From NCBI GenBank assembly GCA_049965555.1, contig JBMFWF010000010.1:1-34911 (forward strand): a DNA stretch of 34,911 nt, given 5' to 3'. Positions 27,503 through 33,338 of this stretch are shown here, piece by piece. Under the pieces are notes generated by a model. The model ran no database searches. It had not been told where the DNA came from and saw nothing but the letters and a program-made list of their open reading frames with translations. Origin of the DNA: Candidatus Parvarchaeum sp. Its GTDB lineage: Archaea; Nanobdellota; Nanobdellia; Parvarchaeales; Parvarchaeaceae. A program made the position numbers and the translations under genes. Position 1 is the stretch's first letter; the number at the start of each line of letters is the position of its first letter.

Positions 27503-28216
27503 TCACTGGCTGTAGCGTTTCAAGTATTCCTGGTGTGCAATGTGTACAGCATCGCTTAAAACTGACTTGAGCCTGCTTATAACACCAGGATTATAGGCCT
27601 TGCTTATTTTCCGGTAGTATTTGTCATTTTTGTCGATGTAATCCAAAAGATTTGCCTCCTTCAGGTCTATTATATCCTTGTCGCACCTGCCATTCATCAA
27701 CCGGTTTCTCCAGGCATTGTACTTCAGCCTGCAGAGGTTCAATGGATCTACGAAGTAGATCTTTTGGCCGTTGTATTCCCTGTAAAGAGCATTTTTCCTG
27801 AGGTTTTCAAAGCCTTCATTTTTATCAAGCAGGCCTTCGCTGGAATAGAACTCCACCCTTATCTTTTTATTATCTAACTGCAGATAGGAAACATGTATAT
27901 CTGCATTGAACAGCGGCTTTGAGCCTGCATCCTTAATGTCTCTAAACCCTTTATCATAAAGCAAATCTTTCATTTCCTCTACATTTCCATCCACGACAAC
28001 ATCTATATCTTTGGGTTTATGAAAAGGATAGTAATTCTGCAATGCCGCGCCACCTATTAATATTGCGTTTTCCTTGCCGAAAATTGAGGAAAAAATTGAA
28101 TAGCTCTTAGCTATGTCTTCCTGACTTAGATATTCGCCCGATTCATAATTAACCGGCTCTATAAGATCTTCGTTAGATAGTTTTGAAAGTATCATTTGCA
28201 GAGTTCTTTTTATCAT
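27503..28216 (-). CDS. Pol-beta-fold nucleotidyltransferase (AbiEii/DUF6036-like)
   Basis: LIGGAAL, KDIDVV, L..LK....R.....KD..DL. Confidence 0.75.
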   Translation of the reverse strand: MIKRTLQMILSKLSNEDLIEPVNYESGEYLSQEDIAKSYSIFSSIFGKENAILIGGAALQNYYPFHKPKDIDVVVDGNVEEMKDLLYDKGFRDIKDAGSKPLFNADIHVSYLQLDNKKIRVEFYSSEGLLDKNEGFENLRKNALYREYNGQKIYFVDPLNLCRLKYNAWRNRLMNGRCDKDIIDLKEANLLDYIDKNDKYYRKISKAYNPGVISRLKSVLSDAVHIAHQEYLKRYSQ

Positions 28217-29478: not shown

Positions 29479-29925
29479 ATGAAAACTTATAAACCTGGCC
29501 TCCTGAATCAGTTAACTGAAAAGGCAAGAAAAGAAGGTATAGAAAGATTTGTTGTAGGTGCTGTAATAGCTATCAATGGAAAAGTACTAATATTAAGACG
29601 AACCAAAGAAGATTTTATGGGAGGAATATATGAACTTCCAAGTGGTAAAGTAGAACAGGAGGAAACCCTAGAACAAGCACTTTACAGAGAAATTAAAGAA
29701 GAAACTGGCCTCAATATCAAGGAGATATTGTCTTACATAAAATCATTTGATTATGAATCTGCTAGTGGTAAAAAAACAAGACAATTTAATTTTTTAGTTG
29801 TAACTAAAGAAGGTGATATAAAAATCTCCGAAGAACATGATGATTATAAGCTTATAGGAAAAAACGAAGTTAACTCATACAACATAACAGATAATGTAAA
29901 AGAAGTAATATTGAATGCGGTATGA
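29479..29925 (+). CDS. Nudix hydrolase (candidate Pur7-like)
   Basis: ELPSGKVEQEETLEQALYREIKEETGL, SEEHD. ATGA overlap with the next gene. Confidence 0.9.
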   Translation: MKTYKPGLLNQLTEKARKEGIERFVVGAVIAINGKVLILRRTKEDFMGGIYELPSGKVEQEETLEQALYREIKEETGLNIKEILSYIKSFDYESASGKKTRQFNFLVVTKEGDIKISEEHDDYKLIGKNEVNSYNITDNVKEVILNAV

Positions 29926-30599
29926 AAGGTTTATTCATAAATTTTGAAGGATTAGATGGAAGCGGGAAAAGTTCAATAATCTCAAATTTAGAATCAATAC
30001 TTCTGTCTAAAGGTTACAAAGTTATTAAATTTCCTGAATTCTCTGATTCTATTTTCGGGGATGAACTTAAAAATAGACTGAAGTCCGATAAGTTTTTACG
30101 TGACACAAAGGATTTTCCAACAAGTATAACACAAAGTTTGTTAGTTATGACGGATCTTGCTTACATTTTTGAATACCATATAAGAGATTACCTTGAAAAT
30201 AATCATATAGTACTAAAAGATAGGTATATTGATACGATTATTTCATCTCAGCTCCCATTTCTACTCAGAGACTACCCTAACATTGGTTCGGAGCGCTTGT
30301 ATAATTTTTTGGATTCGATTTCAAGTATAATTCCAAAGCCGGATATAACTTTCTACGTATACACTGATGATAAAATAAGAAAAGAAAGAATAAGAAATCG
30401 ATACAGGGATGAATTTGAGAAGAATTCAAATAAAATTTCAAAGGAAGATGAAGAAATATTCAAAATGCGTGAAGAGGTGTACAATAAAATAATAAATAAC
30501 AACAAAAACATCTATATAATAAACAACAATGGAACATTAGATAAAGCAGTATCTCAAGTACTTGAGAAAGTCGAAGGGATATATGAAAGAAAAACTTAG
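29922..30599 (+). CDS. tmk: Thymidylate-kinase-family nucleoside monophosphate kinase
   Basis: FEGLDGSGKSS P-loop, VLKDRY, KPDITFY, lid R..RI..R. The usual REP motif reads PEF, so it is divergent. Confidence 0.8.
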   Translation: MKGLFINFEGLDGSGKSSIISNLESILLSKGYKVIKFPEFSDSIFGDELKNRLKSDKFLRDTKDFPTSITQSLLVMTDLAYIFEYHIRDYLENNHIVLKDRYIDTIISSQLPFLLRDYPNIGSERLYNFLDSISSIIPKPDITFYVYTDDKIRKERIRNRYRDEFEKNSNKISKEDEEIFKMREEVYNKIINNNKNIYIINNNGTLDKAVSQVLEKVEGIYERKT

Positions 30600-31074
30600 T
30601 GACATTCTTGATAAAGAAAAATTAGATTACAGCTACCTGGTCGTAAAACCAGACATATACCACAAATCTGAGGAGATATCTAAGTATTTAATTTCAAAAG
30701 ATTACAGAATACTTGAAGAGATAAGAATACAGAAACTTGATAGAACCGACGTTTCGCTTTTGTATGCAAACATGATAAACAGTGACAAATTTGAAGCTTT
30801 AGTAGAATACTTAACCTCCGGCCCAATTACAATATACAAAGTAAGTCACAAAAATTATGATACAATTTCCAAGTTAAAAAGTCTAAAAGGAAACATGGAC
30901 CCAGAAAAAGCAGATAAAGATACACTAAGATATATATTCGCAGATAGAAAGATATGGGATGGCATATACCTGGATGGTATCCATACTACAGATTCTAAAG
31001 ATGAAATTGAAGATTTAAAGAGAATTATATCAAAATACAATAAAGCCTACGACTTAAAAACAAGAGGCCCTTAA
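30583..31074 (+). CDS. ndk: Nucleoside diphosphate kinase, divergent
   Basis: VVKPD, F..LVEYLTSGP, G..DPE.A...TLR, and DGIHTTDS in place of N..HGSDS. Overlaps tmk by 17 nt. Confidence 0.85.
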   Translation: MKEKLSDILDKEKLDYSYLVVKPDIYHKSEEISKYLISKDYRILEEIRIQKLDRTDVSLLYANMINSDKFEALVEYLTSGPITIYKVSHKNYDTISKLKSLKGNMDPEKADKDTLRYIFADRKIWDGIYLDGIHTTDSKDEIEDLKRIISKYNKAYDLKTRGP

Positions 31075-31075
31075 A

Positions 31076-32089
31076 TTGGAAAAGCTAAGATGTTGTATTA
31101 TTGGATTGGGACATCAAACTAATAGTGACCATATACCGGCAATAAAAAATTCTAGTAAAACTGTAATAACTGCGATTTGTGATATTGACGAAAAAAAGTT
31201 AAAAGAGGCACAAAAGTCCCTTGGAGTAAAAGGTTACAAAAATTACAAAGAAATGATAGACAATGAAAAGCCTGATTTCATCTTGGTTGCTGTTCCACAC
31301 AATCAATACCTAGAGATACTAACATACGCAGCAAGCAAACATGTTAATGTATTGAAAGAAAAACCTCTTGCATTAAATCTTAAAGAAGCAATAGAGATAA
31401 GAGACCTTGCAAGAAAGAATAATATACAAGTCATGGTTGCACTTCAAAGGCGTTTTGATCCAATATATTCTTCTTTTTATAAAATGAAGGAAAAGGTTGG
31501 AAAAATATTTTTTGTTGAAGGCAAATATCATTTTCTAGTCAATGACCTAGCGCAGGGGTGGAGAGCGCATAAACTTGAGGCAGGTGGCGGTGCTATAATA
31601 GATCTGGGTTATCACATGGTAGACCTTATTATATGGTACTTTGGGGTTCCAGACCTAATTCATGCAGAATTTTCATCTCGTGCACAGGAAAATGCTTCGT
31701 ATGATGTTGAGGACACTGCAGATATACTATTTAGATTTGAACATCCAGAGATTATAGGAAATCTTTTCCTTTCAAGGCATTATGCACCAAAAGATGAAAG
31801 TATAACCGCAATAGGAACTGAAGGGACGGTTATACTCAAGAGAGACAATATAGTTAGACTTAATAATAAAGGAGAGGTAGTAGAAAGTTTAGATAGAAAG
31901 CAAACCTGGACAATGGCATTGAAAGAACAAATAGATTATTTTTGCGATGTAATAGAAGGAAAAAAGAAAAATATAAACCCTCCGGATTATAATATAAACC
32001 ATATGGCTTTTATAGAGGCATGCTATCTTTCTAAAAGAGAAGGAAAATTTGTGAGGGTGAACGAATTGATTTCCAAATATGAAAAGTAA
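31076..32089 (+). CDS. Gfo/Idh/MocA NAD-dependent oxidoreductase (candidate Pur10-like)
   Basis: IIGLG, VPH..Y, VLKEKPLA, QRRF.P, WR.....GGG.IIDLGYH.VD, VED.A. TTG start 1 nt after the ndk stop. Confidence 0.9.
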   Translation: MEKLRCCIIGLGHQTNSDHIPAIKNSSKTVITAICDIDEKKLKEAQKSLGVKGYKNYKEMIDNEKPDFILVAVPHNQYLEILTYAASKHVNVLKEKPLALNLKEAIEIRDLARKNNIQVMVALQRRFDPIYSSFYKMKEKVGKIFFVEGKYHFLVNDLAQGWRAHKLEAGGGAIIDLGYHMVDLIIWYFGVPDLIHAEFSSRAQENASYDVEDTADILFRFEHPEIIGNLFLSRHYAPKDESITAIGTEGTVILKRDNIVRLNNKGEVVESLDRKQTWTMALKEQIDYFCDVIEGKKKNINPPDYNINHMAFIEACYLSKREGKFVRVNELISKYEK

Positions 32090-33338
32090 ACTTGCAATTT
32101 TTGGAGGAAGCAAAACAATTAATGTAAAAGGCCCACAATATACCTGGCCGATAATAAATAAAGAAATGGAGATAGCCGTTAAAAAACAGCTTTATAAAGA
32201 CATATCAATATACGACCGTTCTGGTATAATAAAAGAAGTTGAGGATGAACTTGCAAAGTATTATGGAAGAAAACATGCTTTATTAGTAAACTCCGGAACA
32301 ATGGCAATATATTCAATGTTCTTCTCAATTAACTTAAAGCAAGGAGATGAAGTAATCTTCCCCAATTATAACTTCTTCGCATCGGTACTGCCTGTGCTAT
32401 TTACGGGTGCAAGCCCAGTCCTTTGCGACTCTAACCCTATTGATGGTAATATAGACCCAGAAAAGATAGAGGCTCTCATAACAGATAAAACCCGCGCGAT
32501 ATCTGTTACTCATATGTGGGGAATGCCGTGTGATATGGATAAGATAATGAGAATTGCCAAAAAATATGCTATAGAAGTTTTAGAGGATTTTTCGCATGCA
32601 CATGGTGCAGAGTTCAGAAACAAGAAAATAGGTTCTTTTGGAGCGGCATCTGCAGCTAGTCTACAAGGCCAGAAAATTATAACCGGTGGAGAAGGGGGAG
32701 TATTACTTACAGATGATGATGAAATTTATTATAAAGCATTACTACTTGGACATTATAATAAAAGATCAGTTCAAGAAATACCTAAAGAAAACAGACTTGC
32801 AAAATTTGCAGTCACAGGGATGGGTTTAAAACTAAGAATTCACCCATTAGCTGCAGCAATAATAAAACAACAGATGAAGCACGTTAACGATTGGCTAAAA
32901 ATAAAGCGGCAAATCGCTGAAAAGATGACCCGTGAACTTAAGGATGTAAAAGGCATACTTTCTCCTGAAGTCCCTTCTTACAAAAAACCGGCTTGGTATG
33001 CTTATATAATAAGATATAATAAAGATGAACTTGAAGATGTGCCGATAGAAACCTTCTACAATGCCCTTTTAGCAGAAGGAGCTTCTGAAGCAGACATACC
33101 GCACTCAACAGGGATACTTAATCAATATCCAATCTTCCAGAATCCAAAGGAACTATTCAATTATTATAAAGGACCTAGGTACAAATTAGGAGATTTCCCC
33201 GTATCTGAAAAGTTCTATAGAAGTATAATAAAACTTCCGGTATGGGCGGAAAAGAAAGACATGAAATTTGCTAAACTTTATCCTGCTGCAATTAAAAAAG
33301 TAGTAGATAACATAGATTACCTGAAAAAAAAGGTTTAA
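32079..33338 (+). CDS. DegT/DnrJ/EryC1/StrS PLP aminotransferase (candidate Pur4-like)
   Basis: LAIFGG, NSGT.A, HMWG.PCDM, EDFSHAHGA, SLQGQKIITGGEGG (PLP lysine). Overlaps the previous gene by 11 nt. Confidence 0.93.
   Translation: MKSKLAIFGGSKTINVKGPQYTWPIINKEMEIAVKKQLYKDISIYDRSGIIKEVEDELAKYYGRKHALLVNSGTMAIYSMFFSINLKQGDEVIFPNYNFFASVLPVLFTGASPVLCDSNPIDGNIDPEKIEALITDKTRAISVTHMWGMPCDMDKIMRIAKKYAIEVLEDFSHAHGAEFRNKKIGSFGAASAASLQGQKIITGGEGGVLLTDDDEIYYKALLLGHYNKRSVQEIPKENRLAKFAVTGMGLKLRIHPLAAAIIKQQMKHVNDWLKIKRQIAEKMTRELKDVKGILSPEVPSYKKPAWYAYIIRYNKDELEDVPIETFYNALLAEGASEADIPHSTGILNQYPIFQNPKELFNYYKGPRYKLGDFPVSEKFYRSIIKLPVWAEKKDMKFAKLYPAAIKKVVDNIDYLKKKV

Follow-up and report, generated by a model that had tools for sequence, protein, structure and literature searches.

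The window analyzed here is a 34,911-nt stretch of contig JBMFWF010000010.1 (positions 1‒34,911) from Candidatus Parvarchaeum sp. (assembly GCA_049965555.1), and the element in question is an operon at positions 29479‒33338. Its five plus-strand genes encode, in order, a Nudix hydrolase, a thymidylate kinase (TMK)-like protein, a nucleoside diphosphate kinase (NDK)-like protein, a Gfo/Idh/MocA dehydrogenase, and a DegT-family aminotransferase (Table 1). The window is part of a 0.78-Mb, 92% complete genome (G000), the partial 16S gene of which is archaeal (RF01959, 685.7 bits) and the size of which is typical of a DPANN-type archaeon. All five open reading frames (ORFs) that an initial annotation had placed here were recovered, and its family calls hold, with Pfam scores well above the cut-offs in each case. 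The junctions it gave (−4, −17, +1, and −11 nt) are reproduced when the NDK-like protein starts at ATG 30583; the TMK-like gene overlaps the Nudix gene by 4 nt, and the dehydrogenase and aminotransferase genes overlap by 11 nt. The longest NDK-like ORF begins at TTG 30562, and the ATG start agrees with the N-terminus of the sole close homolog, P0122.

Table 1 Features of the window and of related loci (L0xx, locus labels) discussed in the text
Feature	Position	Strand	Size, evidence, and remarks
MutT-type Nudix hydrolase	29479‒29925	+	148 aa; Pfam NUDIX, 61.7 bits
Type-II TMK-like nucleoside monophosphate (NMP) kinase	29922‒30599	+	225 aa; Pfam Thymidylate_kin, 70.3 bits (cut-off 27)
Divergent NDK-like protein	30583‒31074 (30562 from TTG)	+	163 aa from ATG; Pfam NDK, 59.3 bits (cut-off 27)
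Gfo/Idh/MocA NAD-dependent dehydrogenase	31076‒32089	+	337 aa, TTG start; Pfam, 80.9, 69.2, and 58.9 bits
DegT/DnrJ/EryC1-family pyridoxal phosphate (PLP) aminotransferase	32079‒33338	+	419 aa; Pfam, 249 bits
Operon leader (intergenic)	29282‒29478	+	Sequence reading
TATA-like AT-rich stretch TTTATATT	29422‒29429	+	Sequence reading; putative promoter role
Shine-Dalgarno-like GAGGGG	29461‒29466	+	Sequence reading; 12 nt ahead of ATG
AbiEi antitoxin / AbiEii nucleotidyltransferase toxin	33545‒34141, 34129‒34773	−	Pfam, PADLOC; at contig end
Nudix gene	13363‒14415	+	350 aa; C-terminal half without family
Nudix gene	26510‒27052	−	
CYTH-domain protein	23361‒23909	+	
PNP_UDP_1 nucleoside-phosphorylase-family gene	20351‒21136	+	
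Major facilitator superfamily (MFS) transporters	1946‒3418, 12081‒13289		>16 kb from operon
Radical SAM protein	L035:7072‒8001, L040:4897‒5844, L042:7076‒8005		With ArsR-HTH protein and small NDK-like protein
GreA/GreB-like ORFs	L016, L018, L023, L024, L026, L028, L033, L034, L045, L080; L027:10643‒11557		~150‒215 aa and by the Nudix gene in the first ten loci

The dehydrogenase, aminotransferase, and Nudix genes belong to the three enzyme families that form the core of known aminonucleoside operons. In the cited part of the ADG report, the adgA‒E operon of Photorhabdus luminescens is described as encoding an MFS exporter and homologs of pur10, pur4, pur7, and pur3, and expression of adgB‒E in Escherichia coli yields 3′-amino-3′-deoxyguanosine (ADG) (PMC9239236). 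The order put forward there is GTP oxidation, pyrophosphate removal by the Nudix enzyme, transamination, and dephosphorylation, and ADG is activated in the target cell to the chain-terminating 3′-amino triphosphate by Gsk, Gmk, and Ndk (PMC9239236). The same three families recur in the Pur10/Pur4/Pur7/Pur3 core of the puromycin cluster and in the clusters for A201A (AtaP) and cystocin (Cst), and the cited account proposes for the pur enzymes an NAD-dependent ATP dehydrogenase, an aminotransferase, and a Nudix enzyme that releases NMP and pyrophosphate (PMC11641026). In adgA‒E as in the window, the Gfo/Idh/MocA, DegT-family, and Nudix genes are neighbors, whereas the Nudix gene of the window comes first, not third.

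A compact version of this module lies on the 6.3-kb plasmid pBMSBPS2 (L104) of the stink-bug gut symbiont Candidatus Pantoea carbekii, which carries only RepA and genes for a Gfo protein, an aminotransferase, a NUDIX protein, and an inositol monophosphatase, in the adgB‒E order of the ADG paper. The window proteins are 42% (DegT, 310 bits), 40% (Nudix, 76.6 bits), and 27% (Gfo, 115 bits) identical to their Pantoea counterparts, and by this comparison the trio, which the initial annotation had likened to the puromycin core, is homologous to and collinear with an adgB‒E-type operon. The Pantoea aminotransferase is in turn 72% identical to a Photorhabdus laumondii protein, within a range of 72‒80% for the proteins of other Pantoea symbionts, P. 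laumondii, Xenorhabdus, Proteus, and Providencia, a distribution suggesting that insect-associated Enterobacterales commonly produce ADG-like nucleosides. When an adg-type query was run against 5.8 billion proteins, members of the window family were among the best 120 matches.

The sequences of the three enzymes are compatible with the corresponding roles. The Nudix protein has a complete Nudix box (G56-x5-E-x7-REIKEETGL), and its closest NCBIfam and PDB likenesses are nucleoside triphosphate (NTP) pyrophosphohydrolases (MutT, NudG, and NudI), with nucleoside diphosphate (NDP)-sugar hydrolase models matching much more weakly; it is also 47% identical to the Nudix protein of Streptomyces pSGZL. 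GFO_IDH_MocA Pfam domains were found at both the N- and C-terminus of the dehydrogenase together with the EKP and D-x3-H motifs, and the enzyme is a candidate 3′-hydroxyl oxidase in the position of Pur10/AdgB. Its top PDB match scores 92 bits, compared with 170‒404 bits for its homologs in related loci, and the NCBIfam equivalogs all fall far under their cut-offs (best iolG, 98.8 vs 355; archaeal UDP-GlcNAc 3-dehydrogenase, 90.6 vs 450). The aminotransferase presumably occupies the Pur4/AdgC position; its putative PLP lysine (K199) does not vary across the family alignment, and the sugar-aminotransferase equivalogs are again far under cut-off (PseC, 182.6 vs 423.5). Since every NCBIfam equivalog scores below its cut-off, none of the five proteins can be taken for an ordinary ortholog of a named enzyme.

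The placement of the aminotransferase was examined in a tree of 60 rows, in which PseC, ArnB, and WecE were the only sugar-enzyme outgroup. The window DegT protein is sister to a Micrarchaeota protein within a 43-row clade (94/95) of aminotransferases from related cassettes. The sister group of this clade, with a joint support of 100/99, is the adg-type clade (9 rows, 100/97), where the proteins from Photorhabdus laumondii, Xenorhabdus, Providencia, and Pantoea fall. Next outward come an enzyme from a Bacillus thuringiensis plasmid, a haloarchaeal protein, and one protein from a viral contig, and a branch of 0.65 (100/100) parts these 55 rows from two further viral-contig rows and PseC, ArnB, and WecE. 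The window aminotransferase thus groups with the adg-type clade and not with these NDP-sugar enzymes; the initial annotation had said that its proposal would fail if the enzymes grouped with and acted on NDP-sugars.

This tree bears directly on an amino-sugar pathway built on a nucleotide handle, of the RifL/RifK or WbpB/WbpE kind, in which a 3-amino NDP-sugar made by the Gfo and DegT enzymes would be split by the Nudix enzyme into an amino-sugar-1-phosphate and NMP, and the kinases would recycle the NMP to NTP. The chemistry is well precedented, since in RifL/RifK/RifM, NtdC/NtdA/NtdB, and WbpB/WbpE, too, a Gfo/Idh/MocA 3-dehydrogenase works together with an aminotransferase of DegT type before phosphate removal, and enzymes of these routes are among the PDB relatives of both window proteins; most characterized DegT enzymes and many of their Gfo/Idh/MocA partners use NDP-sugars, all PDB relatives of the window enzyme are sugar or cyclitol aminotransferases, and G000 has five NTP_transferase-family genes. 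The N-terminus of Pur10 itself is reported, in the cited part of that paper, to be RifL-like (PMC11641026). However, the substrates of the kanosamine and 3-amino-sugar routes are sugars or NDP-sugars, their genes are unlinked to MutT-type Nudix, TMK-like, NDK-like, or GreA-like genes, and their enzymes are poor matches to the window proteins (WbpE, 107 bits; NtdA, 84.5 bits; WbpB, 37 bits). The separation from PseC, ArnB, and WecE in the tree, the low scores of the sugar-aminotransferase and dehydrogenase equivalogs, and the MutT-like Nudix enzyme all argue in the same direction. Genes for a nucleotidyltransferase, a glycosyltransferase, or an acetyltransferase are likewise missing from the operon, and the flanks surveyed in related loci show no prominent example of them. 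As the initial annotation had stated, no glycosyltransferase, acetyltransferase, epimerase-type sugar enzyme, or sugar-1-phosphate nucleotidyltransferase was found among the scanned window ORFs of at least 100 aa, where a short-chain dehydrogenase (17555‒18343) gives a weak side match to the Epimerase family. NMP recycling would, moreover, need no special kinases and would leave the altered ribose contact and the GreA-like paralogs described below unexplained. We therefore regard an amino-sugar pathway as quite unlikely.

Related cassettes were sought in a one-genome-per-species collection, which gave 221 related stretches, and the 79 best loci were examined. At least 120 DegT relatives above 50% identity were found in DPANN, candidate phyla radiation (CPR), Asgard, chlamydial, and cyanobacterial assemblies, and the cassette also recurs in Nocardia and others. 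Within 5 kb of the DegT gene, a Gfo homolog (at least 100 bits) was found in 68 of the 79 loci, a Nudix gene in 68, and both in 62, and the contiguous order Gfo-DegT-Nudix is kept in 41. The partners are even fused, as DegT-Nudix proteins exist with one or two Nudix domains (P0078, P0089, P0111, and P0113). The expectation that the dehydrogenase/aminotransferase pair would be conserved with both the Nudix and the kinase genes was thus borne out for the Nudix gene, while the kinases are accessory, with TMK-like genes in 26 loci and NDK-like genes in five. The latter comprise TMK-NDK fusions 3′ of the DegT gene in L031 and L037 and separate genes in L014, L035, and L042; a word-indexed search with the L031 fusion returned only itself and one 82% relative.

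The linkage of these genes goes beyond chance, given that homologs in 79 other loci are accompanied by the same partners. A fortuitous adjacency of ordinary Nudix, TMK, and NDK genes to an unrelated dehydrogenase/aminotransferase pair might be suspected, as small genomes are tightly packed and two further Nudix genes lie in the window. It is nevertheless extremely improbable in view of the tight junctions, the recurrence of the same partners across phyla, the DegT-Nudix and TMK-NDK fusions, and the housekeeping kinase copies encoded elsewhere in the genome.

These housekeeping copies define the status of the two operon kinases. The TMK-like protein has the type-II thymidylate kinase P-loop (GLDGSGKS), including the Asp specific to that family (PMC3169407), and a DRY motif. 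It scores 74.5 against the dTMP-kinase equivalog TIGR00041 (cut-off 83.25) and weakly matches the PADLOC model of the viperin-associated kinase VakA (PDC-M51B; E 7.7e-8). Two tandem housekeeping TMK genes lie on another contig of G000 and score 146.6 and 102.9 bits, compared with 69.7 bits for the operon copy in the same search. The operon protein matches the cassette-linked TMK-like proteins of CPR, actinobacterial, and archaeal loci at 111‒144 bits (29‒39% identity), whereas it matches the housekeeping TMKs of its own genome at only 39‒48 bits. Similarly, the housekeeping NDK, on another contig, scores 107.6 bits against 59.3 bits for the operon copy, which is far under the cut-off of all NCBIfam NDK equivalogs (48.4 vs 155). 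Since housekeeping TMK (in two copies) and NDK sit elsewhere, the operon kinases are extra, dedicated paralogs. The housekeeping NDK has a C-terminal extension of ~80 residues, and its gene lies between two NTP_transferase-family genes (contig C1, 40974‒45028 region).

The NDK-like protein has very few relatives. A search of 1.84 billion representatives gave 220 matches at E ≤ 1e-3 and 12 at E ≤ 1e-10, and P0122 (66% identity) is its single close relative; metagenome scans with the protein alone and with alignment A2 were empty or gave a lone generic NDK (24% identity). An AlphaFold model from a two-row alignment has a mean predicted local distance difference test score (pLDDT) of 49.8 and is too poor for use. 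In human numbering, the protein keeps Lys12, Tyr52, Arg105, and the catalytic His (in GIHTTDS). In human NDPK, Asn115 and Lys12 hydrogen-bond the ribose 2′/3′-OH groups, according to the cited part of the structural report (PMC10853775). The equivalent of Asn115, three residues ahead of the catalytic His, is Asp in the window protein. P0122, L035, L042, and the L031 fusion also have Asp here, and the L037 fusion has Glu. In a set of 239 NDK domains that carry the His, this position is Asn in 232 and acidic in six, four of which are cassette-linked; the count was made before L035 and L042 came to light and does not include them. An acidic residue at a sugar-hydroxyl contact would be as expected for a substrate with a 3′-ammonium group, and the Asn-to-Asp/Glu change in cassette-linked NDK-like proteins gives indirect support to the idea that a triphosphate is the product. 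The change may have arisen either once or several times.

The other side of this gene complement is what the operon lacks. As claimed in the initial annotation, the operon has none of the genes for phosphatase, ligase, and acetyltransferase known from the pur and adg clusters, and NMP- and NDP-kinase paralogs are present instead. No inositol-monophosphatase-type phosphatase of the Pur3/AdgE kind was found among the scanned window ORFs, and no exporter of the AdgA MFS or Pur8 kind lies in or beside the operon. Unlike adgA‒E, the window operon thus combines the lack of an AdgE-type phosphatase and an AdgA-type MFS exporter with two producer-encoded kinases, and it resides in an archaeal genome of 0.78 Mb. 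Compared by descriptions with the puromycin cluster, it lacks Pur3, the Pur6 ligase, the methyltransferases, the Pac acetyltransferase, and Pur8.

From these features, we consider that the operon may encode a 3′-amino-3′-deoxynucleotide pathway whose product is kept phosphorylated, the five genes being one horizontally acquired operon in a DPANN-type archaeon, and we give this reading, drawn from sequence comparison, about an even chance. The Gfo/Idh/MocA enzyme would oxidize the 3′-OH of a nucleoside triphosphate, as do Pur10 and AdgB; the MutT-type Nudix enzyme would remove pyrophosphate, as do Pur7 and AdgD; and the DegT enzyme would transaminate the 3′-keto group, as do Pur4 and AdgC, with the Nudix step coming either before or after the DegT step. 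The TMK-like and then the NDK-like kinase would return the 3′-amino-NMP to the di- and triphosphate. If NMP and NDP kinases replace the phosphatase, the route would end in a 3′-amino-NTP inside the producer, a predicted chain terminator of RNA (or DNA) synthesis, and the Nudix enzyme might additionally serve as a safety valve. Such a product might be used for antiviral suicide or inhibition, against a host or a competitor, or in some other way. This reading is ranked over its rivals because of the tree, the MutT-like Nudix enzyme, the presence of dedicated kinases whose ribose contact is altered, and the lack of partners from sugar pathways.

Several observations weigh against it. The kinases are not part of the conserved core, and the cassette-linked NDK-domain protein of L014 retains Asn at the ribose contact. 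Arg88 and Thr94, which are phosphate contacts in human NDPK according to the cited part of that report (PMC10853775), are replaced by Lys and Met in the window protein, making its activity uncertain. An HD-domain phosphohydrolase occurs together with kinases in L017 and L037, which blurs the logic that kinases replace a phosphatase, and the Nudix enzyme and the kinases would form a futile cycle if the former hydrolyzes the final triphosphate. On the side of the core enzymes, the dehydrogenase has only 27% identity to the Pantoea protein, and its top curated likenesses are inositol 2-dehydrogenase and the archaeal UDP-GlcNAc 3-dehydrogenase, both far under cut-off. NDP-sugars would also be available in this cell, as the five NTP_transferase-family genes of G000, a family of sugar-1-phosphate nucleotidyltransferases, lie on its other contigs. 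Finally, the adg link runs via a generically named Photorhabdus laumondii protein and the uncharacterized Pantoea plasmid architecture, not via Pur or Adg sequences of the characterized strains.

The same core chemistry could instead end in a secreted free 3′-amino nucleoside, a prodrug like ADG, for which unlinked housekeeping phosphatases and transporters would complete the pathway and the kinases would only supply NTP made from NMPs taken up by salvage, a role already proposed for viperin-associated kinases. The sole experimentally characterized relatives, pur and adg, do export a nucleoside, as far as the cited parts of the reports go. DPANN archaea rely on nucleotide salvage, and this dependence, the weak VakA match of the TMK-like protein, and the MFS transporter and nucleoside-phosphorylase-family genes of the window are consistent with such a role. 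Yet the operon and its immediate neighborhood hold no phosphatase or exporter, a genome with two housekeeping TMKs and an NDK can supply substrate without extra paralogs, and the Asn-to-Asp/Glu change is unexpected for a kinase that acts on ordinary NDPs. Secretion of a free nucleoside therefore appears unlikely to us, and we favor a product retained as the triphosphate.

Additional genes recur in the related loci. A 362‒377-aa protein without a Pfam family (cluster c15) occurs in 11 loci, including L020:2685‒3797, and is placed between the Gfo and TMK-like genes in DPANN and some bacterial loci. A radical SAM protein of 309‒315 aa is encoded just upstream of DegT in three DPANN loci that have no Gfo gene, and it may be a non-orthologous replacement of the dehydrogenase. 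An HD-domain phosphohydrolase is accessory in five loci, and a second Nudix gene also recurs. In Nocardia (loci L051‒L088, ~4530‒6730, minus strand), the cassette is preceded by divergently oriented genes: a conserved 436-aa protein without a Pfam family in 15 loci, 11 of which also have an APH-family phosphotransferase (~297 aa), in up to 15 species; the APH-family gene is a different kinase solution, in culturable actinomycetes.

The c15 protein, the radical SAM protein, and the second Nudix could be read as tailoring genes, in which case the amino-nucleotide would be built into a larger product, such as an RNA or tRNA with a modified 3′ end, a cofactor, or a tailored metabolite, for example a guanidino derivative (through the 370-aa partner protein of other archaeal loci) or an aminoacyl-nucleoside. 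CCA-adding enzymes are able to put 3′-amino-ATP on tRNA in vitro, and an ORF upstream of the operon in the window (27503‒28216, minus strand, 237 aa) has a GG...DIDVVV motif and a marginal likeness to the head of CCA-adding tRNA nucleotidyltransferases. tRNA-ligase-like and GNAT genes lie on the B. thuringiensis plasmid, and alaS adjoins the cassette on Streptomyces pSGZL. None of these tailoring genes is present in the window operon, however, and the CCA likeness (E 0.017‒0.024) is not significant, in an ORF with no counterpart in any of the 79 related loci. We judge a building-block role improbable. The B. thuringiensis plasmid locus (L105, 1079‒9826) is an observation in its own right: its cluster of oxidoreductase, DegT, MFS, hypothetical, MazG-like, class I tRNA-ligase-family, and GNAT genes looks like an undescribed puromycin-like peptidyl-aminonucleoside cluster in which MazG replaces Nudix, and its aminotransferase is also found on two other Bacillus megaplasmids.

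If a 3′-amino-NTP is indeed retained, its target could be RNA polymerase. A GreA/GreB-like gene adjoins the cassette in 11 of the 79 loci, in CPR bacteria and some proteobacterial metagenome-assembled genomes, and in all five bacterial genomes tested, the cassette-linked GreA-like protein (36‒48 bits) is additional to a canonical, better-scoring greA elsewhere (66‒84 bits). Transcript-cleavage factors strip 3′-terminal nucleotides from stalled complexes, and the linked paralogs would fit RNA polymerase as the target and give self-protection. The window, being archaeal, has no GreA-like gene.

The predicted pathway shares its logic with the prokaryotic viperins (pVips), in which a normal NTP is converted to a 3′-modified chain terminator and genes of NMP-kinase families are linked. 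The means differ, as viperins use radical SAM dehydration, whereas the window would use a dehydrogenase and a transaminase and contains no viperin. One can conceive of the operon as an archaeal member of a widespread system of immunity or conflict, hitherto undescribed, in ultra-small archaea and bacteria, with a viperin-like maker of 3′-amino-NTP, kinases adapted to a 3′-ammonium sugar, a Nudix valve, and, in bacteria, transcript clearing by GreA-like proteins; we hold this to be possible but doubtful, and an antiviral or defence role is at present unsupported. In PADLOC 2.0, the Nudix protein matches PDC-S07 (77.9 bits) beside the weak VakA match of the TMK-like protein, and the Gfo, DegT, and NDK-like proteins match no model. 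For the flanks, 223 ORFs were selected (two per cassette side, 77 loci; ORFs of up to 600 aa and one member per recurring cluster), and a random 148 were scanned. Matches were to PDC-S07 in four members, two pVip models (two each), and, once each, two mREase_IV models, two ZorD models, LmuA, SduA, and a DRT model; the Pfam content was heterogeneous and included three resolvases. The suggested association with defence islands was therefore not apparent, as the matches are scattered with no clear pattern, and in a survey with no baseline we claim no enrichment.

Searches of phages and viral contigs gave no more than distant DegT relatives (at most 33% identity), none of them with the cassette, and thus no sign of phage carriage. 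A close homolog is absent from 24 genomes of the same genus (best 32% identity), and the nearest DegT relative is the Micrarchaeota protein (61%), which together argue that the operon is an accessory, transferred element.

To our knowledge, 3′-amino nucleotides, which are classic synthetic chain terminators, occur naturally only as intermediates or prodrugs of the secreted antibiotics puromycin, A201A, cystocin, and ADG. A full-text literature search, with most subscription journals outside its reach, retrieved the pur, adg, and cystocin work and found neither a kinase-linked version nor the DPANN/CPR cassette. If the proposed pathway is correct, cells would deliberately retain the active triphosphate and thus arrive at the antiviral logic of viperins by other chemistry. 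The cassette reaches its greatest diversity among DPANN archaea and CPR bacteria, two groups with a poorly understood biology, and it would offer a testable handle on the conflict of these symbionts with viruses, hosts, or competitors. Ordinary NDK is poor at phosphorylating 3′-modified nucleotides, which limits the activation of nucleoside-analogue drugs, and the operon would point to natural kinases adapted to such nucleotides.

The immediate surroundings of the operon are particular to the window. The AbiE pair noted previously was confirmed on its downstream side. The upstream "nucleotidyltransferases" were not: the three ORFs at 27503‒29281 have no Pfam, NCBIfam, or PADLOC match above threshold, and the CCA-like ORF among them gives, in addition, a sub-threshold match to DUF7277. 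Both the upstream ORFs and AbiE were considered as members of the system and rejected, as they are present in none of the 79 related loci. In the leader, a sigma-70 promoter scan scored no better than shuffles, this model being inapplicable to an archaeon. Within 16 kb upstream of the operon, the two extra Nudix genes, the CYTH gene, and the PNP_UDP_1 gene may mark a nucleotide-metabolism neighborhood, and CYTH proteins were also seen twice among the flanks of related loci.

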